The notes beneath the pieces were generated by a model. The model saw only the letters and a program-made list of their open reading frames with translations, had not been told where the DNA came from and did no database searches. This document shows positions 10,657 to 61,138 of a stretch of 64,000 bases of DNA, in pieces. The position numbers and the translations under genes are program-made. The stretch is from contig NW_027191417.1 in NCBI RefSeq assembly GCF_041146345.1, forward strand, positions 496,001-560,000. Direction: 5' to 3'. The DNA comes from Neodothiora populina (Eukaryota). Every line of letters starts with the position of its first letter. Position 1 is the first letter of the stretch.

Positions 10657-11056
10657 TTCTCGCAATTGTGATGCCCATGAAACCTCATGCCACCCTACCT
10701 TACTCCAAGACTTTCCATGGTCCGTATCGTGCCTGTAAGCCTGTCCTTCTGTCTTGGACCCGGTGCAACTGAATTGCGCCTCACTCTGTAACAAAACGAC
10801 TCGAAGGGTGTCCCCAAGGCAGGGAAGACGCGTCGACAGCCTCGGCATATCTGCCAACACTCGTCCGTGATAGCACCCTTTATCTTATTTTTTCCATACC
10901 TTACTGTATCTCACACTGTACATCATTCTCCACGCGAAAGAAACCACGAGGGTCCGCGGGCTGTAGCTGCCGCCGCCGCCGCCGCCGCCACCTCCGCCGT
11001 CCGCCTTGCTTGAAATACCATTATAGACTTCTTGGCTCACCTGTTGCCCTTGAAAC

Positions 11057-11127
11057 ATGGATCAGTCGCAGCAGCAGCAACAGCAGCAGCAGCAACATCA
11101 GCTCCAACATCATCAACAGCAGCAACC

Positions 11128-11178
<51 letters not shown>

Positions 11179-14100: not shown

Positions 14101-14526
14101 AACAATTGGCAACCATCAACGACAGACGACTTCACCTCTTCCGCGCACACAGCAATGAGCAACAACAACAACAACAACAACAACAGTAACAACAACATGA
14201 ACGGCGCGAGTTTCCAGCAGCCTTTTGTGCCCCAAGATCTGTGGCAAATGCCAATGACTCTCGAGTGGGATTGGGCCGATGTTCTGAACATGCAATCTTC
14301 GTCCGGGGGAGTGTTTGCAGGCATGGGAGGTATAGGCGGCATGGGCGGGTTTGGATTCGACGATGTCGTAGGCGGCGGCGGCACGAGTGGTGGTGGCAGT
14401 GGTGGAGCAGGGGGAGGAGGTGGAGGAGACAGCACACTTGCCTCTGCGTCTACTGTCGCCAATTCAGTGGCAGGCACTGATATGAGTGGCACAGGTGGCG
14501 GTGGTGGGAGGAACGGGGGAGTGTAG
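11057..14526 (+). CDS. atrR: Zn(II)2Cys6 transcription factor, AtrR ortholog (regulator of ABC transporters and azole resistance)
   Basis: [87 protein letters not shown], Fungal_trans domain ([13 protein letters not shown]), C-terminal [22 protein letters not shown]. Recognised from memory as Aspergillus AtrR-like. Introns 11584-11639, 12517-12569, 13310-13367. Confidence 0.85.
11068..11216 (+). repeat. CAG/CAA trinucleotide repeat encoding polyQ/H in atrR
   Basis: Direct inspection; pure (CAA)n at about 11130-11177. Confidence 0.95.
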
Positions 14527-14630
14527 CCGTCAGTTAGAAGCAGACGAAATCAAGAATCGAAATGAAGAGCAGGCCGCGAACCCCAGAAGCCGAATCCTTT
14601 TCACTTCTTGTCTCGACTTGTCTGTTCTGT

Positions 14631-14634
<4 letters not shown>

Positions 14635-14674
<40 letters not shown>
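14635..14674. repeat. (TC)n microsatellite in the atrR 3' region
   Basis: Direct inspection. Confidence 0.95.
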
Positions 14675-14680
<6 letters not shown>

Positions 14681-15017
14681 TCGGATCGGAACATGCAGAA
14701 GCAGAAACAGAAAGACAGCGCAAGCACAAAATCTGAAAGTCCAGACAAGATGCCGGCAAGGCAGTGCGCTGCAACACCAGAGATTGACTGTTACAACAAA
14801 AAAAGACCGAAACAAAGGGTAAAACGAATAAACCCAGATAATAGCTGGATCGATTGATTTTCCTCAGTCAGTCAGGTTTGGATCTACTCACAGCCAACCA
14901 AGTCGTCTCTATACAAGCGCGGAAAGCAAGCCGTGACAATCTTGACATTAAACCCAAGAGCCGAGGAGAACTCAAGCCAAAAAAAAAAAAAAAAAAAAAA
15001 GAAGAAGGCAGAGCTCC

Positions 15018-15579
15018 TCAATCCCTCTTCCCAAAAGAGGAAGACGAAGCCGTCAGACCACCCCCAACACCATACCCATACCCTCCTAACCGTCCGCCCC
15101 CACCACCACCACCTTCCATACTCCCCAACCCGCCCAACCGATCTTTGCCATGATTTCTCAACCGTCTAGGCAATTCGACACCTCTAAACCACGCGAAACA
15201 AACCGCGGCCGCGGCGCCCGCGCTCAACGCGCAGTAGACCAACGTGCTGGCGTAGATATGGCCACCGACGCCGGTCCAGCCCGAGGGCAATTGCGTGGTG
15301 GGGTACCAGCGCACGGAAAAGCGCAGAGGCAAGGAGTCGCCGATGACGATGCGCGCCGGCGGGCCCGCTTGGGTCGCCGACGACAGCGAGGAAATCGAAT
15401 ATGCTGTTCCCGCGGCGATGACGCCCGGGTCGGTGGATTTGGGCGCGGCGTGAAGCAGCACGTTTAGGTGCGAGCCGATGTGCAGGTGGCTTAGTTGCAG
15501 CGTGCCGGTCAGCGCTATGATCAGGGGGATGTAGTCTTCTGAGCCCAGGCTGCCTTGGCCTCGGATGGGGTCTGCGGCG

Positions 15580-15671
<92 letters not shown>

Positions 15672-16310
15672 CGAGGCGGCTTTTGCGCTCGATAGAGACG
15701 AAAGGGACAAAGGGCGCGCGGGGATGCGGCACGTCAGGGGCGCGTCGTTGTGCACGTAGAACTCCAGCAGGTGGAAGAACTCGTCGGAGATGAAGTCCAG
15801 CGTGCAGTTCATGTCTTTCTCGACCCCGAAGTATAGCTCAAGCGGCCGGCCGGTTTCGTTGCATGTTGGGAAGGCTATGTATTGCAGTTGTCCGGATGCA
15901 TCTGTGATCTGTCATCGCGCAGGCTCCTTGCGTCAGTTTGGTTCGAGCTGTCGAGGTTTCGAAGAGGCGCAAGCTGCATGGCTGTGTCTAGAAGAGGGTA
16001 TTCTCACGTGTTCGCCGGTATCACTACAGTATGGATCGAAGTCAGAAAGGTGGACACTTTTATATCTTCATAGAAACAGAATAACGACATGGAATCTATT
16101 CGTGAAGCAATGAAATGATACGAAGAGAGAAGACAGAAAGACATACGATGTTCTGTTCAAGCACGACACCGGAATGGCGTCTCCCTGTTTATACCGTGGC
16201 TTCTCAAGCAAGGGTTCCTGAGCATTCGACGACGACGACACGCCCGCAACCAGCGCCACGTAAAAGGCGATCAACAGGCGCACAGCCAATGGACACCGGA
16301 TGCCGACCAT
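15018..16310 (-). CDS. Conserved-looking fungal type-I membrane protein (signal peptide, C-terminal TM, Gly-rich tail ending GKRD) with a poly-Asn insertion
   Basis: MVGIRCPLAVRLLIAFYVALVAG signal; spliced IPVSCLNRT|..DTGEH|ITDASGQLQYIAFPTCNETGRPL..CTLDFISDEFFHLLEFYVHNDAPLTCRIP; TM TLVYCALSAGAAAAVCFAWF; two introns. Confidence 0.75.
15579..15671. repeat. (TTG)n/(AAC)n microsatellite, about 31 units, encoding poly-Asn
   Basis: Direct inspection. Confidence 0.95.
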
Positions 16311-17055
16311 TATTCCCGTGGTCGTCAGCTTATTTACAAGACAACAAAAGACCACAGATGTTGGAAACCAAGCAAAGAAAAGAACAGATGCAACACCCTC
16401 TTTTTTCTTGTTGTCGACTGCAAGCTGTCGAGCTTGTTTTCCCTTTACGAGGAAATCCCAAGGTTCGAGTTACATAAAGGTACATACATACAGATACACC
16501 ACATGCACACACTTGCAGTAAGGGACAGTACCTAGGCTGCGCTACTGTACAAGTACCCAAGCTGCCAATGCGATACGGACTCGAAGTGGTCCGTGCATTT
16601 AACGGTTTGATAGCTCTCTTCCTACAGAGAAGCAGCATACGAGAGCAATAAAACCCAAGGTACACTCTATGCTCAGCAATGCCGACTTCGAATCACATCA
16701 CAAGGACACAGCAGGGATAGATAACAGTGCAAAAGTGGTATGGCCTCGTTGGCCTCGTTGGAATTTCGTGGTATAAGACCGCTATACAAAGATTACAGCA
16801 ATTACATGGCCCTCGTAAACTAGACATTTTGTTTGTGAACAAACCGCAGATGGCAAAAAACCATACAAAAGGGGTATATGACCAGAAGTGAAGAATCGAA
16901 GTGAACAAGTAAAAGGAAAGAGAAGAAGTGAATGCGACTGGTCCAGCATCTCTCGGAGATGCCATTGAGGAGTCGGGGAATAAAAGTGCAAAGGAGAAGG
17001 TGAAGAAGAAGATAAAGACCCCTTGGAAATAGGAACAATCGAAGATTAAAACGTG

Positions 17056-19137
17056 CTAAACCTCCTCGGTGAAGCGGCTGCCTCTGCTCCCCTCGAAGCT
17101 CGACATGGTCGCTGGCGTGTTGCTGCGATTGGCAGTGCCAGGCGGACTGAGTGGTCCTCTCGGCGTGTGAGGACCCTCGTCAACTGGAGAAAGTACAATA
17201 TGCGGACTCCCGGGCGTCCTGGGCGATGCGGGACCACTGACCGTGTCAGCAGTCGCGGGGTTTATAGTGTATGGTCCACCGTGATGCACCGTCGGGTGTC
17301 TCGCAGGTCCAGGCCGCGGGCTTATGGTCTCATCTCGGTCCAATGCAGCTCCGTCGGCGAAGGGACCTTGATCGCTGTAACCGCCGGCATTGCCGCCGTA
17401 ATACGACTCTCGTCCCTGTCCGAAAGCTGCAGGCATGAGCGGTGGCGGCGAACGCACGCTCTCCATGCCCTCGGAAAAGGCACTCGGAAGCTTGCGACCA
17501 CTGACGCGCTGAAAGCCACGTTCGCCCGTCGCAGCAGGTGTCGTCTCGACCTCGCGTCTGCTCCTGAAGCGCCCTCCACCCAACAATGGCGCCAACACGG
17601 GAACAAGACCTGCCCTCTCTGCCATTCCAGGGGCGCCGCCGCTTGGACCGCCACCACTGGTCGGGCCGTCGAAGTGGTGTGTCGCTTCTCCCCCTGCGAT
17701 TGCCTGCCTGCTGGCCACGCGCTTCCTGTACCAGCGCAGATACACCATCACAACGAGCAGCAAAACCGCCAGACCAGCGACACCACCGACGATGCCACCA
17801 GCTAACACCGAGGTGGGAGGTGTGTTGTCGTCATTGTTGCTACCTGCACCAGATAGTGACGCCGACGACGACGACGACGACGACGAGGCAGATGCAGGTG
17901 CAGTACCGGTCGCCGAACCCGCGGACAGAGCAGATTCTCCCGAGGTCGAAGCGTCGGATGTGGAGCTGGCAGATGGTGAACTCGAAGCCGTCGCGGAGAC
18001 AGATGACGAGTCGTCATCGCTCGAGGAAGACGATGTCGCAGATGAAAGAGTGGACGCTGGCTCGAATGTGCCAAAGGAGGTGGTGTATTGGCCACGTGAG
18101 ACCGTCGTGACCAACTCCTGTCGCGTCAATGCGATGGTCGCAACGACTCCATTTGTCAAAGTGGTGACCATAGTAGAAGAAGCAGTATAGCGGCCGAGCT
18201 CGGAGAAAGAGAGTGAGGTGGTAACGCTCGACGCGGCGGAAGAAGCCTGATTGAAGGTTGAGAATGAGGTGTAGGTCGTTGAAGACCCAGAAACAATGAA
18301 TGCTGCAGTCATAGTATTAGAGGCAGAGGATCCAATTGCTTTCAAAGAGAACTTACCAGATGTTGTGAGATTAGAAGCTATAGATGATGAAGACGATGAA
18401 CCAGAGAGTGTAGGTCGGCCAAGAATCGAGGACGAATTGGCTGCAGCCTGAGTAGCAGACGGAGATGTCGCCACTGTCGGACCGCTGCTGTTCAGTGATG
18501 AGAGGCTCGAGGTCACAGAGGTGATGGTTCCATTCAAACTCGACGAGAGGGAGTTTGACGACGGCTGCGCGGAGGCCGGAGCGGCAGCGGCGGTGGCGTC
18601 TGACGACAGAGAAGTCACGGGCGCTGTGCCTGTGCTGGTGGAATCTGACAATGCCGACGTCGCATCGGAGGTGGACAAGTCGGAAGAAGTGTTGCCAGCC
18701 GCTGTAAGGGTCACGACAGACGAGGACGCAGCAGTGCCAACGAGCGAGGAGGTAGTGGATGGAGGCAATGATGGTGTGAGCGATGGTGCCGTCTGAGGGG
18801 TAGTCGACGAGGCGGCGGGATCGGCAGATTGCGAGAGTGTCACGCTCGCGCCTACTGAGAGGACATTCGAGGCGGAGCTGGATGAAGCAGAGGCGGTAGG
18901 ATCTGGAAAAGAAGAAGACGACGAATAGTCTACCAGACCCGTACCAAGGGGAGTCTGGCGCCGAAGGTATTGGCGACCTTTGCGATCGGGGATGTGGTTC
19001 TTGCCGTGGAGGTGGCCTTCATTGTTGCGCTGGGCCAGTAGCGCATCATGCAAGATTTCTTCCAGGCCGTGAGAGCGAGATGAGTGGTCATCTTGAGGGA
19101 TGGGCGAGAGTTTCCGGCGCTTGGACGGGGCCTCCAT
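17056..19137 (-). CDS. Ser/Thr-rich single-pass membrane protein (Mid2/Wsc-like architecture)
   Basis: 693-aa ORF with a long S/T/A-rich region, TM VLAGGIVGGVAGLAVLLLVVMVYL followed by RWYRKR, and a cytoplasmic tail ERGFQRVSGRKLPSAFS...GSRFTEEV. Confidence 0.8.
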   Translation of the reverse strand: MEAPSKRRKLSPIPQDDHSSRSHGLEEILHDALLAQRNNEGHLHGKNHIPDRKGRQYLRRQTPLGTGLVDYSSSSSFPDPTASASSSSASNVLSVGASVTLSQSADPAASSTTPQTAPSLTPSLPPSTTSSLVGTAASSSVVTLTAAGNTSSDLSTSDATSALSDSTSTGTAPVTSLSSDATAAAAPASAQPSSNSLSSSLNGTITSVTSSLSSLNSSGPTVATSPSATQAAANSSSILGRPTLSGSSSSSSIASNLTTSGKFSLKAIGSSASNTMTAAFIVSGSSTTYTSFSTFNQASSAASSVTTSLSFSELGRYTASSTMVTTLTNGVVATIALTRQELVTTVSRGQYTTSFGTFEPASTLSSATSSSSSDDDSSSVSATASSSPSASSTSDASTSGESALSAGSATGTAPASASSSSSSSSASLSGAGSNNDDNTPPTSVLAGGIVGGVAGLAVLLLVVMVYLRWYRKRVASRQAIAGGEATHHFDGPTSGGGPSGGAPGMAERAGLVPVLAPLLGGGRFRSRREVETTPAATGERGFQRVSGRKLPSAFSEGMESVRSPPPLMPAAFGQGRESYYGGNAGGYSDQGPFADGAALDRDETISPRPGPARHPTVHHGGPYTINPATADTVSGPASPRTPGSPHIVLSPVDEGPHTPRGPLSPPGTANRSNTPATMSSFEGSRGSRFTEEV

Positions 19138-28500: not shown

Positions 28501-29145
28501 ATGCCGTTGTCGCTAGGATCAGTGGTCGACTACAAGGCCTATCACATCCTTAGCTATGGCACCCTTCTCGGTGCCACTGTCTTTCAGTCCTTCATAGGTG
28601 GTGTGGTGGCGTACAAGTGCCTTCCACGACCGCAGTTCTCTACCTTACAGCAGAACATATTTCCGATCTTCTTCGGCATTCAGACAGTGCTTCCTCTGAT
28701 TATGCTTGCTACATATCCTGGAGAGAAGTTGCTAGGTATTGGCGGAGAATACATCAGAGAGAACGTTGGCTTCAGCGGTGTCATGGCCGAGAGTAACAGA
28801 TGGAGCGTTCTTGTGCCACTCGCCACCATACTTATCACTAGTGCTGCGAACATGTTCTTCGTTGGTCCGGCCACAACCAAGACGATGAAGCAGAGACACC
28901 ATCAAGGTAAGACTAGCAGAGTGCACCATACGGCATGTGAGCGTACCACGTTGCGGCCTTCCCTTACTAACGCTCTTCTAGAAACCCGCGATGGCAAGAA
29001 GAGTTATGACCAGGGTCCCCACTCCCCTGAGATGCAACGGCTGAACAAGGCATTCGGAAGCCTGCACGGCATCTCTACTATCCTCAACCTTGCGGGCCTT
29101 GGTGCTATGATTTACTACGCATATGTTCTTGGTTCCAAATTGTAG
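28501..29145 (+). CDS. TMEM205-like / DUF4149 membrane protein
   Basis: YHILSYGTLLG..FQSFIGGVVAY..LPRPQFSTLQQ.IFPIFF..Q, N...VGP.TTK.M, LNKAFGSLHGIST.LNL; intron 28907-28981. Confidence 0.85.
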   Translation: MPLSLGSVVDYKAYHILSYGTLLGATVFQSFIGGVVAYKCLPRPQFSTLQQNIFPIFFGIQTVLPLIMLATYPGEKLLGIGGEYIRENVGFSGVMAESNRWSVLVPLATILITSAANMFFVGPATTKTMKQRHHQGKTSRVHHTACERTTLRPSLTNALLETRDGKKSYDQGPHSPEMQRLNKAFGSLHGISTILNLAGLGAMIYYAYVLGSKL

Positions 29146-29202: not shown

Positions 29203-29287
29203 GCCCCTTTAGCTCAGTTGGTAGAGCGCGACACTAGTATTCTAATACGAAATGTCGAGGTCGCCAGTTCGACTCTGTCAGGGGGCA
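29203..29287 (+). tRNA. tRNA-Thr(AGT) with a 12-nt intron (29240-29251)
   Basis: GCCCCTT/AGGGGGC acceptor stem, GCTC-AGTTGGTA-GAGC D arm, CGACA/TGTCG anticodon stem with AGT at 29236-29238, T loop TTCGACT; one C-T mismatch in the T stem. Confidence 0.88.
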
Positions 29288-30482
29288 ACGCAAAGCAGTG
29301 CTGCTGGCTGGTAATTTTGTCTTCATGTTTGGTGCCTGTAAACTCGGCATAGCATCATTTCATCAGAATTGAGAAACGAGCCACTATTTTTGCCATATAT
29401 CCGCGGTCACCAGTGAGACGACTTTGCTTGTTCGCTAACAACCCTTGGCGGCAATTGATGGTGTCTCGATCGCCAACCTGAATAAAGCTGTGCATAACTG
29501 TGATCGGATAATAGAGACATTGATGGCAGGGCAGCAACTTGTATATCTGCTCGGCGTGGCTACGCACTCTGCTTGTCTCCTCGAATTCATCAAATTGAGT
29601 AAGGGACCTATCACAATTGGAAGTCTGAACAGCCTCTTGTATGGTGGCGCTCTACCTAGCTTATGTTAGCACGGATGACGAGCATGTGCCAAGCTCGCTT
29701 CTGGGGCGATATTTTGATCATGGTAGACCTGACTTCATACCTTCCAGACTAGGTGATTATACAATAGAACAGGGCAGCACCACAAGCTGTAGAGAATGCC
29801 TTGAGAACTTCTTCGTATACACAGGTAGGGGTGCCCAAGGGCGAGTAGATCCTTGGTTATGATCCATTTTTCGATTGTTTTCACCAAATCTCTGATCCCC
29901 CTTGATTCTTATGAGAGGTGTGTGAAGCAATTCACTGCCCTCACGAAGGTGACCGTAGTATCGAAAGAAAGTCAGCAAATCACCGCCCAACGATGGACTA
30001 AGTGAGAGTGTAAATCAAATGTAAGTAGCTGGCTAGCTACCATACGGAATGGTGGGTAGCAGCTCAGAAGTCCCCATGTCGTAAAGTTTTGCGGCAAAGG
30101 TCTTGCGTCTGCTGGTGCCTGTTGATGTCCTCTGTATTTGGGACACCCTCACAAGACCTCACACAATTGCAACTCCTCACTTACACCTGCTACGCATATA
30201 ATGGACCTTATCTCTCCCTTCTTCTCTTCTTTTCTTCTTCACAAAGTCAACAACAACAGCGATCACAACAACGATAGCAAAAGCAATCATTAACCGCAAT
30301 TTTATTATCATCTTTGATAATAAAAGAACATCATCAGCAGCAGCATCAGCAGCAGCTCAGTCAATACATTCTCTTGCGTCGCCATCGTCGTCGCTTGTTT
30401 TGTGACTTTTTTGTCACCTCATTATTTCAGCACCAATTCTTCTTCCCATTCCCCTTTTCCCTCCCCGTCCTCCACCATCATC

Positions 30483-33115
30483 ATGATCCCAATCGTGTTC
30501 ATTGGGATCCTGTCGGCTCTCGTCGCAATTCTCAGCGTCGGGAACCTTGGACCTGCCAGTTGGCCTGGCTTGCTCCTACAGGCTCTCCCTCAAGGCGGGA
30601 TCTTGCCCCCTCACTCCCCTCTTCCCCTCTCTCTCCCTCTCCCCTACCATCGCCCTCTCTCCCCTCTTCCCCCAAGCTCGGCCGCCTCGTCGACGTCCTC
30701 CATCTTGACTTCTTTCTTTCTGCCCCCAGTCTTGTCATCCCCCTCTTATCCGGATGTCATTGGCTCTGCTGCCTTACCCACAGCACCCTATGTCATTCCC
30801 TCCCTTGAAAGAGAGACCGTCGGGGCTGCATCGTTGTTGCCCTTCTTCCTTTTACTTCTTCTTGTTCTCGCTGCCTTACTGCTCTACGGCATCTCTGCAA
30901 TCTCTCTTCGCTTGGCCGTGGCCAGACCAGTAGCACCAACTGCTGGCTACCAGCGAGAGATCGAAAACCTCAACCTCCGGCTGGCCCAGCAGTGGGGGGT
31001 TATCGAGGGGCTCGTCGCAGATGCCAAAGAAGCCCGCAATGGCAGTGAAGCCTCCAGAGTCCTGCTTGAGTCTTCCCAGGCCAAAGCACTGGAGCTTCAA
31101 CGCAGACTGCCTCGTCTCCAGAAAGATCTGGAGAACAAGACAGAATGCTTGGAGGAGGAGACAAAGGCACACGATCGCACCTTCAAGAAGTTGGAGCGTC
31201 TCGAGCGCCGCCAGAAGCAGGACAACATCAGCAGGCACAATCGCCCTGATGTTCGTCCATCCCTATCCATCTCGATGTACCCCAGTGTATCGACGACCAC
31301 TGTCCAGCCCACTGCCACCGTTCAACCCTCTCTCTCCGTTGCCTCTACCCAGACAGAGCAACCTGAGCCTCTTGCAATGCTCTTGCCAACTTACAGTGTT
31401 GCCTCTGCCTCTACCCAGACAGAGCAACCTGAGCCTCTTGCAACGCTCCTACCAACCTTCGCCGATGCCTCTATTCAGACAGAACATCATGAGCCTCTCG
31501 GGCTTGAAGCTGCTGTCACACAGCTCAACAAGACCCTTGAGCAGCAACAGAAGGAGCTTGGGGAGAAGAGCAAGGTGATCGAGGTCCTTGAGGCCGAGAA
31601 AGCCTCTCATCTCCACAAGCTGGACGGGGAAGATCGCAAGATCAAAGAGCTTTCCACGACGCTGGAAACAGCCAACGATATTGCTCGAGATCATGCTTCC
31701 AAGGCAGCGGGCTCGGAACTTACACTGCAGGCCAAGGACGAGGAGTTGGCTTCATCCAGATCCGCACAGCTGGAGGTAACGCGCGTGTCTTCGGAGACCG
31801 CAATGAGATTACGCCAGCGTGTTGACTTGGTTGAAGCCGTCAATGAGGGGCTCTTGGAGCAGGTCACGCGCGGCCGTCAATCCATAGGGGAGATCCAGAC
31901 TCTGAAGCAAGACAATGAATATCTTCGGAGACAGATCAGATCCCTGGAGGATGCCGTGGCCAGCATCAGCACCATCAATGAGCCCCCTGCGCAGGCTCCT
32001 CAGGAGCAGAGCACCACCTTGGCCGAGGTGCAGACGGAAGGGATCGACCAGGGCGCCGCTGGCGAGTTGCAGGAAGCACTCGCCATGTTCGATCTTGAGG
32101 GTGTGGACTTCAATGCCCTCGGGCCTCTTGAGCTTCCCTCTCTGAATGTGGACGACTATGAAGCGGCCGTCCGTGATCTTGAGAACCCTCTCGTTCAAGC
32201 CTTTCCCAACGTTTCCTCCGTCGAGGAAGCTAACCCCATGGCGCATGACGCATCAACTCTCGATGTGTCAGTCATGGATACAGCTGAGACTGTAGCGGAA
32301 GTTGGTGAGGAGAACGATGAGGACATGGATGCGGAGACACTGCTCCGACACTTCTTCGATCTTGACACAGACGAAGAAGAAGCAGATGTCAACTTCGAAG
32401 ACGTTCCCAACATCGATTTTGCGGCTCAGGTTACAGAGCCACAACAAACCCTCTGCAAGTTCAGTCCTGCTGTACCATTTGAGGTGGTGCCAAATGAGCC
32501 ACAGCAGACTGTCCAAGCATCAAATACCGCTGACTCTTCAGAGGAGCAGCAAATATCCTTCACTTTCGCCCCCCTAGGCCACTACAGCTGCAGCAGGAGT
32601 CCGAAGAGGACGAGGACGAATTTGAAGCAGAATTGGTACGGGAGTTAGAAACGGCAATGGTTTCCCAACGGGAGCATGATGAGATGCTCTCTCGACGGGT
32701 CATCAAGCCACTCCGTGCACGCCGTGTTGCTATCCAACCGGCTGTGCCCGTGCCAACTCCCGCGGGAATGCTGCCACTCAGCGCGCAGGATAGACCCATG
32801 AGAGCTCTCCCTCGACGTCGCCGTGCGATGCAGACCCAAGTGGAGCAGACTGGGTCATCACCCGTGATTCAGCAGTATAATCCCCACTGGGAGAATATTC
32901 CTGAACCGCCGGAGTTGACGCAGGAGGAGCTTGATTTTCTTCTGGATGAGGCACAAGAACTCAGCTCAAAAATGAAAGCTGAGGGAGAGACCACTTCGGT
33001 ACCTCAGAGTCATCCGCCAGATGCTCAAGAGCCCGAGACTGCCCAACAACCTGTTGAGGAAAAGTTGGTGGTCATCGACCCTCAGCTGCTGGCGCTCGAT
33101 AGAGCACAGCAATGA
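30483..33115 (+). CDS. Orphan membrane-anchored coiled-coil protein with TQT repeats and an acidic tail (apparent 1-nt frameshift at C6 run 32569-32574)
   Basis: Intronless ORF of more than 720 codons from ATG 30483. Two hydrophobic segments, heptad-rich E/K/L/Q stretches and an acidic C-terminal half. The acidic composition continues in the -1 frame to TGA 33113-33115. Confidence 0.7.
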
Positions 33116-34045
33116 ATAGAAAGTGTTTGGGCCAACCATCACTGAATACAGAGTGAATGAGCGCGCTCATCATTGATTACTATCAATGTCGCCATCACAT
33201 CTCACACCTACTGAGGCTTGCCATCGCCCAGTAAGGAATACGGAATGGACTTGTGCATCCCTCCATCGCCAAATACCATCCTCGCGGTCACATCTGTTGA
33301 CATGAAGTCACAAGCTTCATCGGTACCTCAGCACCCTTGAACAGAAGCTCAGAAGCCTTCTCAATCCCTTCTTCCAGAGCCCTGACCCGAGGACGAGCAT
33401 GTGACGATCGACCCTTACCTACTGGCTCTTGTCAGAGCTCAGCCATGATTTATGGCTAACGAGCCTGCGAGTTCCATCCAGTCGTCACACAGCTACCTAC
33501 TGGCGCTCTCGAGAGCCCAGGAGATGGTACAAAGCGAATGAGCGCAGCCGATCAACCCGCTATCATCAGACCACACGCTGGTGCTTCACATAGCCCAGCC
33601 ACGATGAGCGTAACTGATCGACTCGCCAACATCAGAAGTACACCCTGGCGCTTCACATAGCCCAGGTCACGAATACATGGTGAACGAGCGCAGTCAGCCA
33701 ACTCGCCGTACATCCCATTCTTGCTGGTGCTCACTATAGCCCAGCAAACGATACACAGTGAATGAATGCAGCCATCACTGTATATTGCCAACCATGCTGT
33801 CACGACGAAATCCTTCCACCGTTCGTCAGATCACAGCAGCTGATGCAATGAGAGTCTACACACTCGTTACTGAGGCACATCTTACCCATCACAGTCACCT
33901 AGTTGTCACACTACATACCTACTGGTAGCCTGACAGAGTCCAACAACAAACACATTGCAGAAGGGCTCAATCACATCCCTAGAGGCAGAAATTATCACCT
34001 CACTCCTGCATGACCTTGCTACTCGCGCTCAACGCAGCACAGCAG
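33089..34045. repeat. Degenerate array of a 21-bp quasi-palindrome CTGGYGCT-N6-AGCMCAG
   Basis: Copies at 33089, 33211, 33422, 33500, 33578, 33645, 33724, 34022. Confidence 0.75.
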
Positions 34046-34164
34046 CAAGTCCAGAGCGAAGGGCCACTCACTGATCACTGAGTGGAATCTCCATTGCGGT
34101 CGTGGTCAACATCCATTCACGTTACACGTGTCACATGCTTCTCATCATATGCAATCACTTTACC

Positions 34165-34800
34165 ATCACATCGCGTGTCTACTGGCGCTAGACATAGCAG
34201 AGTGAGTGAGCATGCTTGTAAAACTACCTCGAGCTCTCCTTCAATACATAGTCCTCCCGACAACTCATCTTGTCGAAGGAACATCAACCCCACATCACAC
34301 CGCATGTCTACTGGCGCTAGACACAGCACAGTAGATGAGCATTCACGCAACACTGTTTCGAACTCTTGTCGGAACACAGTCCTGGCGACTCATCTCGTCG
34401 ATATAACACCAACTACTATCACACCGCATGTCTATTAGCACTAGACATAGCAGAACGAACGAGCATACATGCGACATTATGTCGAGCTCTTCGTCAAAAC
34501 ACAGTCCTCCGAACAAGTCATCTTGTCGAAGAAACATCAAATACCATCACACCGCATGTCTACTGGCATCAGACACAGCAGAGTGAATTAGCATACATGC
34601 AACACTATTTTAATTTCTTCATTAGAACGCAGTCTTTCAAACAACTCGTCCTGTCGAAGAAACATCAAACAAGATCACACCGCATATCTACTGGCACCAG
34701 AAATAGCAGAGAGGGTTAGCATACATGCAACACTGTTTTGAGCTATGCTCTAGATTCACAGTCCTCTCGATAACTCATCTCATCTTGTCGAAGGAAAACC
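34165..34800. repeat. Tandem repeat of 5 x ~127 bp
   Basis: Units start near 34165, 34291, 34417, 34545 and 34674 (ATCACACCGCATGTCTACTGGCGCTAGACACAGCA...CAGTCCTC..CTCATCTTGTCGAAG). Confidence 0.9.
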
Positions 34801-35764
34801 AAAAACCACCTAAAAACCCAAAAAAGGTCAAAACAAACAAAACAATCACCAAAAAAGTTGAAAAGGAAGATAGGGGATCGAGTGGAGGAAATTTTACCGC
34901 TGGTTTGCCATGAAGGCATCCACATACCAGCACTGGACAGAGCCTAGCAATGGAGGCAGAGCACGCGTTCACATGATCAACTCGTGGTCACAACACAAAT
35001 CTCCAAACAGCCTCAGTTGTCTAAGAGTGATAAAATCATGAGCAATTGATGATTCACAACAAATGCTGAGTGAGCGAGCATACAAACGCACCCAGACACA
35101 TGCTACATCGCCACCACAATATGATACCCTCGCTGGCTTGGCTTGTCGGACGCGAAGGCAACAGCAGCATCTCCGCCCCTCGTCATCAGCAAAATGAAGA
35201 GAAACCTACAAACAAGGCTTTCCTTTCTATGACAACAGAGGGACTACACAGTGAGGTGCATTCAAAAGTATCACTGCGGAGCAAGAAATACCAAGTGAGC
35301 GAGCACACACACTCGTCGCTGAACATGACCATCACATCGTCACAATTCAATGCTCCAGGCGACTCAACTTGTCAGAATCGAAATCAGAGTCGACCGAACG
35401 AGAACCCAAAGCTCAATAGCAATTATCCCTCGTTCAGACAGTGCAAGCGGCTTCAGATGTCTATGACACATAATCAGCCTTGCACATTGAAGGTTCCTCA
35501 CGCTCTTGGCTCCTTTTTCTGCGACCAAATCCATTGAATAGGCCGCGTCGAAACAAGACACGTTTCCCTCAACATTAAACAATTGGGGAATCAACAAATC
35601 AAGACGCGTTGGACAGCTATATGTCTCTTCAAGAGCTATCACCAACCTTACACCAAAAGCGTGTTGCCTTACAACCTACTTGGCCCCTGATGCAGTGCCG
35701 AAACCAAGAATCGGACACATTGCACGATCTCTCTCCATGATCAATCAATTGTGAAATCAAGAAT

Positions 35765-36462
35765 TGGAGAAGGGACGCGCGGCTTCACGTCTCTTGCTGA
35801 GCCATCATCAGTCTTACGCCGAAAGGTTTCCTCTCCATGGAACCAGACAATGAGGGTTAGGAAAGGGGTTGGACACCTGGCTTCACGTGTCTGTCATAGA
35901 CATATCAGCCTTTCACCAAAAGAGTCCCTCCCCTTGGCCCTCAAAATCTTACCAGAGGCACGAGCAGTGTCAGAGGACCAAACATCCGGTCTCTCACTAC
36001 AATCGTATAGCAAGGGTTAGGAAAGGGGTCGGGCGGCTTCATGTGTCTACAAAAGACATATCACCAGCCTTCCACCTAAAAGGCCCCTCCCCTTGGCCCC
36101 CAAGCTCACGCCCATGACCAAAGAAAGAAAAAGGTCAAACGCAATCAGAAGGTCTTTCCACGAGACACCTCCACATGGATATGGGCAATGACGGGTTAGT
36201 AAAGGGGTTAGGCGGCTTCACGTGTCTACAACAGACATATCACCAGCCTTCCACCGAAAAGGTCTCTCCCCTAGGCCCCTCAGCCCGCGAACAAGAAAAG
36301 CGACCCAAAAAGGTCACCAACACACCAGACCACGTTCAACAAGTGGAAAAAGACTTGAGGAAGTAAGGGAACAGAAAAGGGGTTGGCCGGCTTCACGTGT
36401 CTGCAAGAACAGACATATCATCAGCCTCCACCAAAAAGGTCCCTCTCCTTCCCTGAACCCTC
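35765..36462 (-). repeat. Array of five ~90-nt structured units with unrelated spacers (putative ncRNA motif)
   Basis: Plus-strand core GGCTTCAYGT at 35781, 35879, 36035, 36214 and 36389, each followed by a hairpin, ATCA(YCA)GCC and ACC-A-rich-GGT. Confidence 0.85.
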
Positions 36463-36779
36463 GCAAAGCGAAAAATCGAAGAACCCCACCGGCCATTGAT
36501 CAAAGATCTCTGTGTCGATGAACAAAGGGGACACAATCGATTCACTTTGCAAAAAGAAAAAGAAAAAAAAACCCCCCGATCAACCAAGAAGATCGGTGAA
36601 CATCAAAACGTTCAAGACAAAGAAAATGAGTAGATAGTACTATATAGTCGAACGATGGAACGGTGGACGAGCGATGGTATTGCAAAGGGATCTTGACGTT
36701 GATGGTTTTCCTTTTTTCTTTTGCGGTCTTGTCTTCCTTGCTTGCTTTTTTTTCTTTCTTCTGTCTTTTTTTTCTCCTT

Positions 36780-37400
36780 TCTCGCTGTAATTTTTCTCTC
36801 ACCAGTTGTTTCTTCTCACTGGGTTTTCTTATTTCGCTGCATTTCTTCTATTTCCTGGTTCTGCTCTTTCTTTTGTCATTTTTCTCCTCTCTCACTGTAT
36901 CTTTTCTCTGACCAGTTGTTTCTTCTCACTGGGTTTTCTCTCTTCGTTGTATCCTTTCTCTCACCTGTCGTCTCCTCTTACTGGGTTTTCTCCTTTGGCC
37001 GTATCTCTTTTCTTACCAGTTTTCTCTTTCCTCCTGGTTTTCCATTTTTCTCACTGTACTTTTCTTCTCACCAGTTGTTTCTTCTCACTGGGTTCTCTCT
37101 TCTTGCTGTATCCTTTTCTCTTACCAGTTGTCTTTTCTCACTGGATCTTCTCTCCTCGCTGTATCTTTCTCTTGCTGGTTCATTCTCTTCTCGCTGTATT
37201 TTCTCTTTTCACCGGTCATGCTCTTCCTGATGTATTTCTCTTCTTGTCGGTTATCTCTCTTATTACTGTATCCCTTTCCTCGTCGGTTGTCTCTTCTTTT
37301 GCTGTACTTTCTCTCCTCACCGGTCGTCTCTCTTTCTTCTGCATCTCTGTTCTGGCTGTTTATCTACCTTTTCACGGCTTGTCTCTTTCTACTGCTTGGT
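36780..37400. repeat. Pyrimidine-rich ~52-bp tandem repeat (three ~17-bp subunits) that decays rightwards
   Basis: ACCAGT/ACCTGT at 36801, 36911, 36963, 37015, 37070, 37123; unit CTGTA-Yn-ACCAGTTGTTTCTTCTCACTGGG-Yn. Confidence 0.85.
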
Positions 37401-37926
37401 TCTTTTCTTGTTGCTGCTGCTGCTTCTCCCTCTCTTCTCATGGCTTGTCTTCTACTACTTGTCTCTCTTCACTCTGGCTCTCCAGTTGTTTGTTTTCAAA
37501 TTCAGTTTCATCATTTATTTCTCTCTCAAGTCTCTATTATATTCCTCAGATCGCATAGCATGGGATCGTGGCGGTTTTTGTGGTTCTTGTTTTCGGGTAG
37601 TCTGTATGCCGATTGATTGAAGGCGGACGCTTGTGGAGCTTCTCGATGCCTGCTGTATATACTCTGAGTCTAGCTACCAGAGCAGACTTAGCCGAGATCA
37701 TGTATTTGCTTGAAGTCTAGCTACTAGAGCAGACTTGATCGAGGACGTTGATTCCTCCGGCCTATTGAGCTTGATCAACGAAATGGATTCTTCTGCCAAT
37801 CTATCCGACTTGATCCATTGAGTTGTTGCTGTGATATACAAGTTCTGGATTTCGACGATACGAACCTCCTACAAGTTCTGATCCTGTACACCGCGACCAA
37901 AACCTAGCGACATCTCCACTAGACCA

Positions 37927-39074
37927 TCATGTCTCCAACCCTCCCACAGCAGTCCCCTTCCTCCCTTCCTCCCTCTCATCCTCAATCCTCATCCTCAACC
38001 TTACAGCCTCCCACCCTCTCCTCACAACATCACTCATAACCCCACCTCCCAAGCGCCTGCAAGCCTCCGCAACCGGCACCAAAGCACTCTGATACAGCAA
38101 TTCCTCCTCGTCGACGCCCGTACCTTCATATTTCCTAGGTTCATAAACCGACTCACTACCATCTACAGAAGAAGAAATTGAATCGAGCGCGATCCGCTGC
38201 CTCAGCGTCATATTCCTCGGAAACCGAGGCGGGGGAATATAGCGCCTCCTACTCCCTGAGTCCGACGAAGCGCTCTTCTCATCAACGCCCGACGTCTGAA
38301 GAGAAGAAGAAGCAAGGTCCGAAGAGAGATTCAGCGCGTCCTCGTCGTCCTTACAGAGAGTCTCGGCCACGTACCAGTGCAGGATATACTGTGCGGAGCG
38401 CGACTGCGGCACGAGCTGGGTCCAGAGGGGCTCGGTGTCGAAGGAGTGGATCGCGGCTTCTGGGGAGAGCTCGTCCGGGTAGGGTTGTCTGTGGGGGATC
38501 GGCAGGGGGAGGAGGCGGTTGCGGTAGCCGGACTTTTGGGGCATCAGCTCGGGCGTCTGGGCTGTGGGTTTGAGGAAGATGCAAGACATGGGATTGACGG
38601 CGTGGGTTTATGGGATTAGAACAAGACTCGAAGGTACTGTTTTTGGGCAGGGGTATATGTTCTGCAGTGCTTTACGATGGCGGGAATGCAAACTGGTTTG
38701 AGAAAATGAAGAATAGTGGCAAGACTACTCCTTTGACATTCACAAAACCAGACACAACCCTCACGACTACAACAACATATCTAAAAGAGAAATGGAAAAG
38801 AAGATAAGAAAAAGCCGCTCACCTCCTCAAACCCCTCCCTCACAGCAGCGCACCCGGCCTCCTCACTAGCATTTCTCCGTCCCTTCGGCAAGAACCAGTA
38901 CCCATCTCTCGAATGCCAGCAGAGTACCACACGCTCACTGGCGAGGTGGAAAGTGGCTACTCCGGCGCCTATGGTCAAGTTCTCACTTGCGAAGTTGGCG
39001 TATACTGGGGCGCTTGAGTGGGGATGAGATGGTTTGTGCGGTTTGTTGTTATGTGGTAGGCTTGAGGATGACAT
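37927..39074 (-). CDS. Nudix hydrolase
   Basis: Spliced Nudix box WFLPKG-RRNAS-E-EAGCAAV-REGFEE|SG across intron 38533-38822; downstream HRQP, TEPLW, QYILHWYVAET. Confidence 0.85.
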
Positions 39075-49888: not shown

Positions 49889-50799
49889 TCAACAGGCGCA
49901 ACCCTCCTTTGCGCCAGCGTCCCTGATACTGTTCAGATTGACCCTCGAATCGCCTCCAGCCTGTGCATCATCGCCGTTTCCACCCTGTCTGGCGCCCGCC
50001 GCGCCGCCCCTGGGTCCCTTGAGACTAGTCTCCGGGATAGCATTCGCAATAGCCGTGAAGACGTCGGTAACGTTGGTGCCATTCTTTGCGCTCGTCTCGA
50101 AGAACAAGAGGTTTTCCTCGTCGGCGTATGCCTTGGCCTCTCTGGTCGATACTTTCCTCGCATCGCCGTTCAGGTCCGCGTCGTCTTCAGCCGCTGTTTC
50201 CGTCGCCGCGGCCGTCTCGTCATCGTCGTCGTCGTCGGCGCCGAGGCCTTCGCTGTCCTCGCCGCATAAATCCGATTTGTTACCGCACAGCGCAATCACG
50301 ATGCCCGGGCTGGCTTGACGCTGGAGCTCGGCGACCCAGTGGCGCGCCTTGACGAGCGAACTCGGTTTCGTCAGGTCGTAGACGACAAGGGCGGCTTGCG
50401 CGTTGCGATAGTACATTGGTGCGAGCGAGGCGAATCGCTCCTGGCCTGCCGTGTCCCATATCTCGAATTTGATCTGACGCGTGGGGAGAGTGATTTTCTT
50501 GGTCAAGAAGGCGGCGCCGATTGTGGGTTCTTTGTTGGGTTGGAAATCATTGTTGACGAAGCGGAGGACTAGTGAAGACTGGTAGGAGAAAAGGATGGGG
50601 AGTCAGTCATTTTCTTAGTATCTTCAATAACAGGAGAGATTGCAGAACCACTGAGCAAGCTATACATGTAAAGAAGAGAGAAAAAGAGAGATGTGCAATG
50701 TGTAAAATAATCGTCAAGTCTCACCTTTCCTACTGCGGCTTCACCCAGCAAGACGAGCTTGACGCTGCTGCTCGGCTTCGGCGCGTTGCTTTCGCTCAT
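49889..50799 (-). CDS. VPS21: Rab5-family GTPase, Vps21/Ypt51-like
   Basis: [64 protein letters not shown] terminus (GCAC); intron 50579-50724. Confidence 0.92.
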
Positions 50800-53700
50800 T
50801 GTAGATTGGGGATAACTCGCTGTACGATTGTAATGCGGTTGTATTTTGTCACAGTAATCCCAGAGAAAGAGAGATGAAGATATGGAGAATAATGTGGCAG
50901 TGATGGTTGGCGTGGGAAGGCGGTCGTCGATGATCGTTGGCTGCCCGAGCTTCGCCGGACTATCGTCGAAGAAAAGATCAAGTACGGTGGATATTATCTA
51001 ATTGTCCACTGCTATGATCTAGCACTGATATTGCTCGGTATTTCTTTTGATGATTATGAGGGAAACAATCCATCAATTGATGGTATACAGCAGGTACAAT
51101 ACAGTACATCGACTGTATCCTATCACTTTCCAGCCAATGACGCTCCTTCATTCCTGCCGCCGAACATCCGCCCGAGAATGAATCAAGTCCTGTTTGTTGT
51201 GTTTGTCTCTCTGCTACTCGACTCTCATATGCCAGCACCCAGCACCCTGTATCCTCCATCCTCTGTATCCGCACTGAACACTTCAAAAACAATCGTTGAA
51301 TGAGATCGTCAGGACCACTCTGCATTACCCTTGCTTTCTAGCTGTTTTTCGAGGCGACACCCGAGGTTGTCGAACTATGACAGCCATCTTGGGCTCAGTC
51401 GACCAGAGAGGATTTTACCATGCGAGTAATGGACCACACCTCACTGCGCTGGCGGAGGCGCGCCTATCGCGTCTTGACTCAAGAGGGAATCTATCCCTTG
51501 ATCCATAATTCGACCGTCTAGCAAATGACTGCGTACAAACGACGTTCGTGGACAGTAGAACCATCCCAGTCAGCGGGGTGTGTTATATATTTGTCCTTAG
51601 TGTTGCAGCCATGGGTGTAGCATCTCTATGCAACATGAGCTGCACTTTTGGCAAATGACAAATACCTACCTATACAAGCGAACCGATGTGATACACGTCA
51701 GCTTTCCCATCACTCCGACCAAGGTAGGCGCTTACCCGTCCGTTGAGACGGCATCACTGTGTTTTTACGTTCAGCGCTCGTCATCCGTCAAACGAAAAGA
51801 ATTCTTGCACGGCAGATACCTCCCTTGTCTCATATAGCCATGGTGTGTGCAGCGAGAAGTTTGGACATCCATCAAGTGGACATTCATCAAGTCAAAGACG
51901 CGTGTCTTTCTTCAATGCATGTCTGCCCTTGCCAATACTCGGCCTCGCAATGAGGTATACTGTACATTGGCATGTCAATATTTCATCTAATACGCCTGTC
52001 GGCATCATAATGGACACGCTGTCCTGTCGGTTGACGTGTTGATGTTGCATTATCGTGCAGAGCCCGGCCAATCCTTCCCTCGGAATCGGCGAATTACAAC
52101 GTGTATCATACTCCCCGGAATTGCCATGTGTTTTGTGCTGTCACTATCTGGCATTCCTCAGTCGTCCCCTATTGCTGGATATTGGTCCGCCGCGCTGACG
52201 CAGCGATAGCAGATCGTGCTTGAGCACTTCATCAATCAGAGCGTCTTTACACCACGCTCGGGGCTCACTGCGAGCTGTCATCCTCCGACTTGACAACATA
52301 GCGGGACAGGGTCGCGATGCTTTCTCCACCACGCGATCTTCTGGAAAACATCAAATTCCCGCTAGAAACTTCTGGTCTGCGTGCAAGGACGACAAGTCAT
52401 GGTCCCAGCAGTAGAGTCGGAAATTCTCATTATGCTCATCGTGCCCATATCCTCTTCCCTCTTGAGTGTTTTCAGCGCTATGTTACTTTGACCATTTTCC
52501 TCCTGTGGCCACCGCCAACACTCTGCGGAGATAACATCGCCGATTCGGGGGCATGTCGATATGACTGTTAGATTGATTGCCTTTCCAAGCAGTGAGTCGC
52601 AGCCATGTCGTTGTCTACGACGGTGGTAGCGATCGACGTTGTCGCTCCGCCACGTTTGTACCTGATCAGCGACGAACCCGCGGAGCCACAGGCATAGCGC
52701 ATGAAGAAACGTTAGCAACAACACATACGCATGGGCCTTTGATTATATTTGCTCAAGAATGTGTAATGGAAATGCACCCATTTTCAGAAGCAAACATTCA
52801 GACGTAATCAGAGACTGCCTGCCGGCCGCGTGGAGTAAACCTGTCGACTCATCCTTATTGAACCCAACGTCTCTGTTTGCCACAGTCTGCGAATTGAAGC
52901 AGCGAAATGATCATACACATCGGTCGGTGACCGAAGACGTGAGTTGTACTGAGTCGGGCCCGCTCCAGCATGCATTCTTTAGAACCCACCCATAGTTGTG
53001 GCTTGTCTCTGCTGCTCAAGCAATCTGTTGAGACTGCTTCTTGAAATTGGCTAGAGCCCCGAAGGAGAAATGATCAGATGGTCACATTATGTGATCTCGT
53101 CGACGGCGTGATCGTCGGTGTTGTCTTGGAAGACCCCAAGATTTGGCATGCATGAGATCGATCAGTGACCATGAGACCCTTGTGCCCCGCGGATGAGGTG
53201 CTTGGAGTTCTTCCAAAGTCCTGCCGTTGTCAGGTCTCAAGTTGTAACGCCCCCCTTCTAGCTGTTCCAGACGTGTCTGCGGAGAGACCAGAAGATGGAG
53301 CGCTCAACACTATGATTTACTAAAATCCGAGCGCCACCTGCGCCCGGATTTGGTACCTTGTCAGAAAGCGCGCGCTGAGTGCAAATGGAACATGATAATT
53401 CGATCAATTAAGACATGCATCCGCCAGACAGGAGCTTGGTTCACAATCTTAGCATGACGTGGGCTACTCGATGACACAGAGCTGTCAAGCCATCAGTGAA
53501 ACAAGTTTTCTTTATCCTTTGCCCTCCTGCTTGCAGAAATATCAACCGGGTACAGACACTGTGGCGTTCCGTGCTACACGTCGATTAGCCTCATATGCGA
53601 ACTGGTGCCGGTAGTTAGGGGCGATTGTCCTGAGTTCGGTAAGCTGCATCTCACGATCCCGGATGTCAGGATACTTGTGCCGCGGGCGCGGGGACCACCC

Positions 53701-55827: not shown

Positions 55828-55890
55828 ATGGGTCGCGGCGCATACGATACGACTGGCACCATCAAGCAGCCTCCACCACCCAAGAAGTAG
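55828..55890 (+). CDS. Putative 20-aa micropeptide MGRGAYDTTGTIKQPPPPKK in a spliced transcript
   Basis: CCAAC-ATG-G start context, C/T-rich leader, and flanking intron-like segments 55686-55761 (GTAAGC..CTGAT..AAG) and 56015-56157 (GTGAGT..GCTAAC..CAG). Confidence 0.55.
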   Translation: MGRGAYDTTGTIKQPPPPKK

Positions 55891-60729: not shown

Positions 60730-60915
60730 TCAAGGGTCAAGTGGCAGTATTCATGTCTCGAGTGGCGGCTGTCGATGGCAAGGGTCAAGTGCTAAGGGTC
60801 AGTACTTTGTGTCATGTGTCAAGGGGCAAAGTGTCATGTTTTGACAGTCAAGGGTCAGTGTCCAAGGTCAAGCCTGTCGAGGGTCAATGTCTAAGTGTCA
60901 AGAGTCAAGTGTCAG
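60730..60915. repeat. Degenerate repeat of a CAAGGGTCAAGTG-like unit
   Basis: About 8 variants of (c)aagggtca(a/g)gtg seen by inspection. Confidence 0.65.
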
Positions 60916-61138
60916 TTCGCTGTGAGCGCCGCATCTATAGTGCCAGATCAGGGTTTGTCGATATAGTAGTTGTAATGTTCGGGCAACAGTCCTGGGGGGG
61001 AAAACCCCAAAGTTGAATATTCGAGCAAGTGTTTCTTATACTCAAAGTCTCCGTGGTAACAAACAGATCATTGTCATTAGAAAAGTAAAGTCGAGAGAGA
61101 ACGCTATACAATGAGGAGGAAAGAAAAACAAGGTCCGA

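Follow-up and report, generated by a model that had tools for sequence, protein, structure and literature searches.

What is the nature of the 4.8-kb block of repeats that lies behind an orphan gene of the fungus Neodothiora populina, and how did it arise? The question is raised by an island within a 64-kb stretch of contig NW_027191417.1 (hereafter termed the window; all positions are those of this stretch). Here, a codon-biased open reading frame (ORF) on the plus strand (30483–33115) precedes a 4.8-kb tract that lacks coding signal and extends to the stop codon (37927, minus strand) of a NUDIX-family gene. Given that the two genes are convergent, the ORF-free block sits between two 3′ ends and must therefore be regarded as 3′-flanking DNA, comprising long 3′ untranslated regions (UTRs) and/or intergenic spacer. 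Three families of direct repeats, termed arrays A, B, and C, are confined to this block, as established by profile searches of both strands of the window. An initial annotation had interpreted them as the hairpin modules of a long non-coding RNA (lncRNA) or giant UTR. The explanation favored here, with a probability of roughly 0.55, is that the block arose by in situ tandem duplication of the stop-bearing terminus of a young gene, followed by decay, with arrays B and C being locally amplified as well.

A Repeat Block at a Single Locus

The locus is unusual relative to its surroundings. Tandem Repeats Finder (TRF) reported 11 rows with a score of at least 80 in the window, and all eight with a period of at least 35 fall within 31336–37335. 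Self-BLAST gave 14 pairs at E < 1e-4, all of which are direct and each of which lies inside a single array. By both methods, then, the repeats are head-to-tail direct copies at one locus, as in a local tandem-duplication array. The layout given in the initial annotation was recovered by TRF and by the family profiles and is far from chance. Its description of the block as lacking credible ORFs also holds, with no convincing Pfam match in 14 block ORFs and no frame that carries coding bias.

Array A Matches the Stop-bearing End of the Orphan Gene

A profile of the A-family core was built from 13 downstream 41-nt cores, with the copy in the coding sequence (CDS) left out. In the window this profile gave 14 matches at E ≤ 1.9e-4, all on the plus strand between 33079 and 34711; the next match had E = 1.4. 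One of the 14 was the end of the CDS itself (33079–33111), which was recovered by the downstream copies with E = 3.2e-5 (20.3 bits). Similarity over a longer range was observed between 32989–33118 and 33313–33451 (nhmmer, E = 7.6e-7), and comparison of the latter segment with the end of the gene as protein gave 44% identity over 52 columns (tblastn, E = 5.8e-4), with two in-frame stops in the copy. The octamer CTGGYGCT occurs seven times on the plus strand of the window; all seven lie within 33089–34311, the first being part of the terminal codons of the gene. Taken together, these profile, nhmmer, and tblastn comparisons show array A to be homologous, at the sequence level, to the end of the gene. 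What had been annotated as a module of its own is thus a series of decayed copies of the stop-bearing 3′ end of the gene, so that no less than 2.2 kb of the block can be accounted for more simply. We infer that descent ran from the gene end to the array.

The remainder of array A was delimited in the same way. TRF detected a 66-nt pair at 33538–33665 and a 128-nt array at 34161–34744 (4.6 copies). A hidden Markov model (HMM) of the 128-nt unit (A128) recovered five units at E ≤ 1.3e-34 and a relic at 35279–35373 with E = 0.003, and A-type sequence thus fills ∼33116–35400.

Translation of the copies in the frame of the gene revealed a recurrent pattern. The gene ends in VIDPQLLALDRAQQ and a stop codon; copies read TIDPYLLALVRAQP, YLLALSRAQEMVQSE, TLVLHIAQPR, TLALHIAQVTNTW, and FLLVLTIAQQTIHSE, each followed by a stop, and LLLALNAAQQ.., and the five 128-nt units read CLLALDIAE or CLLALDTAQ, again followed by a stop, and related forms. 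A peptide of the LLAL/LVL/LAL..A[QE] type is present in the CDS frame in 12 of 13 downstream copies, and in 9 of these 12 a stop follows within 8 codons; in the copy at 33919, a 1-nt insertion prevents the LLAL-type peptide from being read. The stop of the copies sits in a conserved GTGAATGAGC-type motif with an in-frame TGA, found behind most cores of the early part, and 8 of the 11 matches to this motif on the plus strand of the window are in the block. Because the peptide is followed by a stop in this manner, each unit represents a terminal coding piece, a stop, and a short 3′ flank rather than an internal protein repeat. Codon differences among eight lineages have a synonymous to non-synonymous ratio of 63:73 in frame, as compared with 17:146 and 18:129 in the shifted frames, and the in-frame ratio fits copies derived from coding sequence.

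The A copies are not coding now. Spacings of the A128 units (129, 124, 128, and 128 nt) are not multiples of 3, upstream frames differ among units, and codon scores do not stay positive in any frame of the block. The ATG ORF at 35100–35537 (145 codons) has a codon score of 0.017, equivalent to no coding bias, and no Pfam match. Substitutions among the A128 units are transition-biased (58:20) and neutral-looking, with the four transition types approximately equal. A Suv3_C_1 match on the minus strand ORF at 34117–34377 (86 codons, inside the 128-nt array) reached 23.0 bits, just above the cut-off of 22.5, but none of its stretches passed individually; it was rejected as probably summed repeat noise.

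The “21-bp quasi-palindromes” of the initial annotation correspond to the hairpins of the A cores. The core at the CDS end (33079–33111) itself folds with −14.7 kcal/mol (z = −2.96). The register of the stem shifts along the array: early copies pair CTGG.GCT.. with ..AGC.CAG, and the 128-nt units pair ATGTCTA with TAGACAT, such that CTGGCGC is now in the loop. For this first hairpin of A128, 0 of 13 pairs show a compensatory change, several pairs are broken, and the RNAalifold covariation term is +2.08, a penalty. Whole-unit fold z-scores for the five A128 units were −1.15, −2.42, −2.69, −1.49, and +0.04. Given that the conserved stems coincide with the conserved codons, conservation of the stem and of the peptide are inseparable in array A.

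Array B Forms a Family of Unbranched Hairpins

Five structured units of ∼90 nt had been annotated in array B. The HMM and the covariance model each give seven members, with a conserved core of GGCTTCACGTGTCT..AGACATATCA.CAGCCTTCCACC; the covariance model matched all seven at E ≤ 8e-4 on the plus strand, and the next best match in the window had E = 0.046. The five youngest units fold as one unbranched imperfect hairpin of ∼100 nt (28 pairs, 0 branch points) rather than as a three-way junction. Fold z-scores for these five units were +0.24, −3.16, −3.03, −1.55, and −2.51 on the plus strand and −0.08, −2.27, −1.11, −0.24, and −2.74 on the minus strand. The two oldest units retain inner helices only, with the outer helices lost and several mismatches.

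No homology was detected between arrays A and B, in that neither profile matches the other array; only a short GTCTAC..AGACAT hairpin is common to both. The sequence CACGTG is found in the core of three of the seven B units, at the same position. The 5′ arm of the units (35855–36215) contains telomere-repeat-like strings, GGGTTAGG and GGGGTTAGG. Readings of B as H/ACA, C/D, microRNA-like, or telomere-like RNA, considered by eye only, were unsupported; the pocket is one-sided and no boxes are sensibly placed.

Array C and the Final Hairpin Pair

TRF assigned a 52-nt array of 8.2 copies to 36770–37207 within array C. Pyrimidines make up 81% of the plus strand of array C, which spans ∼600 nt (T 52%, C 29%, G 12%, A 7%), and the motifs CACCNGT and GCTGTAT are conserved. 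A CCAGT/ACTGG stem had been ascribed to every unit. Alignment showed that the short units lack 19 columns bearing the 3′ arm, so that the stem is missing from 5 of 11 units and confined to the long ones. RNAalifold predicted 0 consensus pairs for the array, which folds with −6 to −12 kcal/mol per ∼110 nt (z = −0.7, +1.1, and −1.7). The CCAGT/ACTGG stem is inherited identity and not conserved structure.

The final hairpin pair reported previously is present, as established by sequence, pattern matches, and folds, with z-scores of −1.3 on the plus strand and −1.5 on the minus strand. It lies ∼190–270 nt beyond the NUDIX stop and so more probably belongs to the 3′ region of that gene. No similarity was found when array C and the hairpin pair were compared with the NUDIX gene end as possible copies of it.

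The composition of the plus strand switches from A-rich to T-rich at ∼36.6 kb, with each half A-rich when read in the sense direction of its nearer gene, and the left 3.4 kb of the block retain the skew (A > T, C > G) seen in the orphan gene on its sense strand. The unique center of the block, where this switch occurs, is a possible termination zone shared by both convergent genes.

The Orphan Gene

Both parts of the orphan ORF show frame-specific codon bias. The codon log-likelihood of the first frame is +0.203 to +0.215 bits/codon, within the range of 0.10–0.34 bits/codon obtained for the other genes of the window, and that of the second part is +0.08; the other frames score from −0.17 to −0.32 (−0.25 and −0.23 for the second part). 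The predicted protein has a hydrophobic N-terminal segment (residues 1–25), a transmembrane-like hydrophobic segment by hydropathy (residues 110–147), a Pro/Ser-rich stretch, charged helical-looking regions, and an acidic tail. TRF detected a coding repeat with a 66-nt period (2.6 copies) at 31336–31498.

The protein matched no Pfam family at its cut-off, and its orphan status was supported by four homology searches. It gave 0 matches in a word-indexed search and 0 matches by phmmer among 1.84 billion representatives at E ≤ 0.001; the best score in Atlas, 0.84, was under the meaningful level. Its C-terminal 175 residues gave no match among longer proteins. This is a gene with a coding signal and without detectable homologues, i.e. 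an orphan or taxonomically restricted gene, and it is probably lineage-restricted and young.

The gene had also been called intronless. The reading frame shifts between 32534 and 32600, a region that includes a run of six C residues (32570–32575); a seventh C there would give a single ORF of 877 codons. Alternatively, a 77-nt intron may be present at 32511–32587; its donor, GTCCAA, would be weak, and CTGAC would be the branch-like motif. The frame break would thus be one of three things, a homopolymer miscount, an intron, or a recent true frameshift, and because the join of the two frames is compatible with each, the intronless assignment is unproven.

Proposed Origin of the Block by Duplication of the Gene Terminus

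The data presented above can be explained by the following scheme. The duplicated segment would have comprised the last 10–50 codons, the stop codon, and a little of the 3′ flank, and it would have been copied head-to-tail many times. These duplications most likely took place at the quasi-palindromic core, through either replication slippage or unequal exchange between sister chromatids. After every such event, the copy read first would stay the working C terminus, and the copies behind the live terminus would become untranslated, decaying DNA. One A subfamily would later have been re-amplified to give the 5 × 128-nt array. Arrays B and C would represent two further locally amplified unit families. 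The local confinement of the families is observed directly, as are the absence of coding signal from the block and of structural constraint from arrays A and C. Most of the block is suggested to be without sequence-specific function, to which the hairpin complementarity of array B may be an exception.

If this scheme is correct, the locus records the turnover of the end of a young gene, in which each tail duplication leaves a dead C terminus and stop behind the live one, a process that adds kilobases to the 3′ flank and provides raw material for hairpin formation. It would then be relevant to the growth of orphan genes and long 3′ regions in fungi with compact genomes, and gene-tail duplication would account for most of the apparent exotic RNA architecture.

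Several observations weigh against this explanation. Third codon positions carry only a slight excess of entropy (P = 0.04 with 13 copies, 0.14 with eight lineages). The copy at 33208, nearest the gene, is more diverged than the next copy at 33419, and a simple order in which the oldest copy is the farthest therefore fails. The direction of descent could also be the reverse, with an existing array captured by the ORF. Hairpins with z ≤ −2.2 are formed by 8 of 14 A cores despite strongly diverged flanks, a count that is biased by the copies having been found through the same motif. Hairpins of the GTCT..AGAC type recur in three otherwise unrelated families (A128, B, and the final pair), with 11 of the 24 matches in the window at 34177–37734; 15.2 matches are expected across the whole window.

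Neutral decay alone also does not predict the covariation seen in array B. When five units were aligned with MAFFT, 87.8% of cells were paired and two-sided changes were observed in 6 pairs (shuffle mean 1.4, with 0 of 500 as high; slid controls 0–2). In the seven-unit, model-fitted alignment, two-sided changes are found in 7 of 28 pairs (shuffle mean 2.3, with 0 of 500 as high; slid controls 0–2), with the caveat that the structure was derived from sequences that were also scored and that this one of the two alignments was fitted to it. Well-aligned compensations occur among units B2–B4, from G-C to A-U at columns 24/86 and among G-C, G-U, and A-U at columns 26/84. The pairing of B therefore looks maintained. 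Possible causes are selection on an RNA, a property acting at the level of DNA, and the correction of quasi-palindromes by template switching.

A Possible Transcribed RNA Scaffold

The covariation in array B bears directly on the alternative closest to the initial annotation, in which the block, or at least array B, lies in a plus strand 3′ UTR of ∼3.4 kb belonging to the orphan mRNA, or in a separate lncRNA, and the hairpins are multivalent sites for RNA-binding proteins. This alternative is considered possible, if rather unlikely. Units 2–5 of B fold better than their shuffles on the plus strand, all seven B units are on one strand, and the sense-strand skew of the gene is retained up to ∼36.6 kb, where an A-rich/TATATA center could act as a distal termination zone. 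Against this, G-U and A-C combinations number 17 and 8 by cells but 9 and 7 by columns, so no strand can be assigned to the B pairing. Arrays A and C are without conserved structure, sliding-window folding gives z-scores for the block that are not below those of the CDS, and the helices of the older B copies are broken. Comparison with Rfam 15 at E ≤ 1 returned only the flanking tRNA and a chance lncRNA match inside the CDS, with no family in the block. The sequence evidence speaks against an RNA scaffold for A and C and mildly for one in B.

A combination of the two schemes, in which the orphan mRNA or a separate plus strand RNA would extend to ∼36.6 kb, ∼3.4 kb past the stop, and the seven B hairpins, perhaps with the A hairpins, would form a multivalent protein-binding platform evolved in situ from duplicates of the coding end of the gene, is judged unlikely. 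One sequencing run (X1, share 0.08) provided short contigs at a depth of 2–7 that match the window exactly or almost so, in the genes as well as in the block; this run is probably DNA and is uninformative on expression. Array B is the one part that merits experiment, as a local family of ∼100-nt hairpins with compensatory pairing and no known RNA family.

Other Origins Considered

Accumulation at this site of fragments of a dispersed repeat, such as a miniature inverted-repeat transposable element (MITE), a foldback element, a Helitron end, or a satellite, is improbable. In favor of such a repeat, the units form hairpins. However, on neither strand of the 64-kb window was a copy of A, B, or C found beyond the block, and the best candidate (60190–60282, minus strand) was rejected, being without the conserved B core. 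Consistent with the initial annotation, neither long inverted repeats nor pairs resembling terminal inverted repeats or long terminal repeats (LTRs) were found, and no transposase domain is encoded by the 14 block ORFs. Furthermore, array A shares homology with the terminus of the gene next to it. A transposable element (MITE, Helitron, LTR element, or DNA transposon) was rejected on the absence of terminal repeats, of transposase or reverse transcriptase domains, and of other copies in the window.

Repeat-induced point mutation is indicated by TpA/ApT above ∼0.89 together with (CpA+TpG)/(ApC+GpT) below ∼1.03. The respective indices were 0.77 and 1.16 for A128 and 0.62 and 1.26 for B, and with the four transition types near parity in A128 no signature of this process was detected. 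The values of 0.90 and 1.03 for array C reflect its T-richness.

It is very improbable that the downstream units are still coding, either as alternative last exons with LLAL..AQ C termini or as spliced exons of a longer repeat protein. The peptide-like pattern with a stop in most A copies, the raised synonymous share of their differences, the GTGAGT- and GTGAAT-like motifs read in the sequence right after several cores, and the CAG before a 78-nt segment of the A128 units would all be in keeping with units that still code, but frameshifting indels separate the A128 units, the best A copy has in-frame stops 13 codons upstream of its core, the donor motif is destroyed in two of five A128 units, the next exon, if spliced, would by our reading be in a different frame, and no codon bias is present in any block frame. 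The idea was rejected on frames and stops.

Action of the arrays at the DNA level, through clustered transcription factor sites (CACGTG in B), a replication or recombination element, or a triplex-forming polypyrimidine tract in C, has an equally slight probability: three of the four CACGTG sites of the block are at the same position of B units, the B pairing is without strand bias as a DNA palindrome would give, and array C is strongly pyrimidine-rich, but between two convergent genes, whose 3′ ends face each other, there is no obvious promoter on which the arrays could act, and with 12 CACGTG sites in the window, the four in the block are a modest excess carried by one repeat family.

Comparison with Known Systems

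Minisatellite-type local arrays form by replication slippage or unequal exchange, including events promoted by hairpins or quasi-palindromes, and copy-number polymorphism is their usual hallmark. The block resembles them in its head-to-tail direct units of 36–180 nt at a single locus, with graded divergence and re-amplified sub-arrays, and in the transition-biased, neutral-looking substitutions of A128. It differs in that the founding unit would be the stop-bearing end of the adjacent gene, giving a trail of pseudo-C termini, in that three unrelated unit families stand back to back, and in that family B keeps its pairing by compensatory changes. In the titles and abstracts of the papers found on minisatellites and intergenic tandem repeats of filamentous fungi, no such layout is described, and among the titles found on the source species none concerns the repeats of its genome.

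Arrays of protein-binding hairpins exist in 3′ UTRs, e.g. the iron-responsive elements of transferrin receptor mRNA. These share with the present locus several hairpin copies behind a stop codon on the sense strand. By contrast, the units described here lie >1 kb (A128) or >2.3 kb (B) past the stop and are known from DNA alone, no known loop motif is present, and the A-type hairpins decay without compensation. Xist and roX are repeat-modular lncRNAs in which, as here, a long stretch devoid of ORFs carries a succession of different tandem repeat blocks. The present block, however, is fungal, 4.8 kb long, located between convergent genes, and read only as genomic sequence; one of its blocks is derived from a coding end, and only one (B) has structural covariation.

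Recognition elements of Smaug/Vts1 are hairpins with a CNGGN0–3 loop (PMC4053848). Units 1 and 2 of A128, with a 6–7-bp stem and the loop CTGGCGC, fit CNGGN3, whereas units 3–5 have lost the motif. An array of such elements was rejected, given that hairpins with CNGGN0–4 loops are not enriched (3 on the plus strand of the block as compared with ∼2.3 expected, from 31 on the plus strand of the window).

Related loci were sought in a metagenome scan with the DUF4149 neighbor, which yielded six loci. In L001 (70% identity) the order DUF4149-tRNA is kept, and the contig ends 770 nt after the tRNA. In L002 (55%), neither Ku80, NUDIX, nor any block sequence is common to both, and this locus is not syntenic with the window. 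A 6.4-kb region of L002 downstream of the DUF4149 gene (10662–17073) contains no ATG ORF of at least 120 codons and no long-period tandem repeats.

Neighboring Genes and Other Features of the Window

The sequence character of the window is fungal-looking. The conserved genes said to flank the island were identified by Pfam and Rfam as Ku80, DUF4149, and a tRNA on the left and NUDIX on the right (Table 1). At 85 nt, the tRNA probably carries an intron; it was missed by ARAGORN in bacterial mode. CT-rich tracts mark fungal promoters, and such a tract, preceded by a TATAA-like box, constitutes a putative core promoter for the orphan gene.

Table 1. Positions of genes, repeat arrays, and other features in and around the island
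Feature	Position	Strand	Basis
Ku80 gene	Left of island	−	Pfam Ku and Ku_PK_bind
DUF4149 gene, left of island	28501–29145	+	
tRNA gene, 85 nt; left boundary, outside the island	29203–29287	+	Rfam RF00005, 50.6 bits, E = 1.1e-8
Putative core promoter of orphan gene: TATAA-like box (30197–30201), then CT-rich tract (30206–30242)	30197–30242	+	Sequence reading
Orphan ORF, first frame, 721 codons; stop 32646–32648	30483–32648	+	Translation; codon bias
Orphan ORF continuation, +2 frame, 193 codons open; stop TGA 33113–33115	32534–33115	+	Translation; codon score
Putative founding copy of A-family core: last 11 codons of the gene (..DPQLLALDRAQ)	33079–33111	+	Profile of downstream copies; quasi-palindrome CTGG.GCTC..GAGC.CAG
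Array A, early part: 8 diverged core copies at 33208, 33419, 33497, 33575, 33642, 33721, 33919, 34019	33116–34160	+	Spacing 67–211 nt
Longest pseudo-terminus: apparent decayed copy of last ∼130 nt (∼50 codons) of the gene, ending ..TIDPYLLALVRAQP and stop	33313–33451	+	nhmmer, tblastn
Array A128: 5 units of 124–134 nt, each with core (..ACLLALDIAE-stop type), ATGTCTA/TAGACAT hairpin, and CGACAA/TTGTCG hairpin	34161–34803	+	TRF, HMM, folds
Decayed A-type stretch, A-rich, with one recognizable A128 relic at 35279–35373	34804–35440	+	A128 HMM
Array B, 7 units: 35441–35501, 35613–35662, 35759–35847, 35849–35951, 36009–36110, 36188–36289, 36363–36463	35441–36463	+	nhmmer, covariance model
Unique center with composition flip; contains ACTATATAGT	36464–36740		Composition and sequence
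Array C: six 52–53-nt units, then five ∼36-nt units	36741–37350	+	TRF, alignment, HMM
Final pair: direct 29–31-nt copies, each an 8-bp bulged hairpin (AGTCTAGCT..AGCAGACT)	37657–37735		Pattern matches 37668–37687, 37715–37734
Last long ORF of convergent NUDIX-family gene; right boundary of island	37927–38589	−	Codon score +0.139
Upstream exon of NUDIX gene	38781–39074	−	Pfam NUDIX, E = 3.2e-5

Another stretch of the window that is poor in long ORFs is found at 50416–61285, where ∼11 kb contain no ATG ORF of at least 130 codons on either strand. Two further simple repeats were observed within ORFs. A perfect (GTT)31 tract at 15579–15671 lies within a minus strand ORF (15018–15812), and a (CAA)27.7 tract at 11105–11187 lies within a plus strand ORF (11057–11587); each is a long homo-amino-acid tract in a coding frame.

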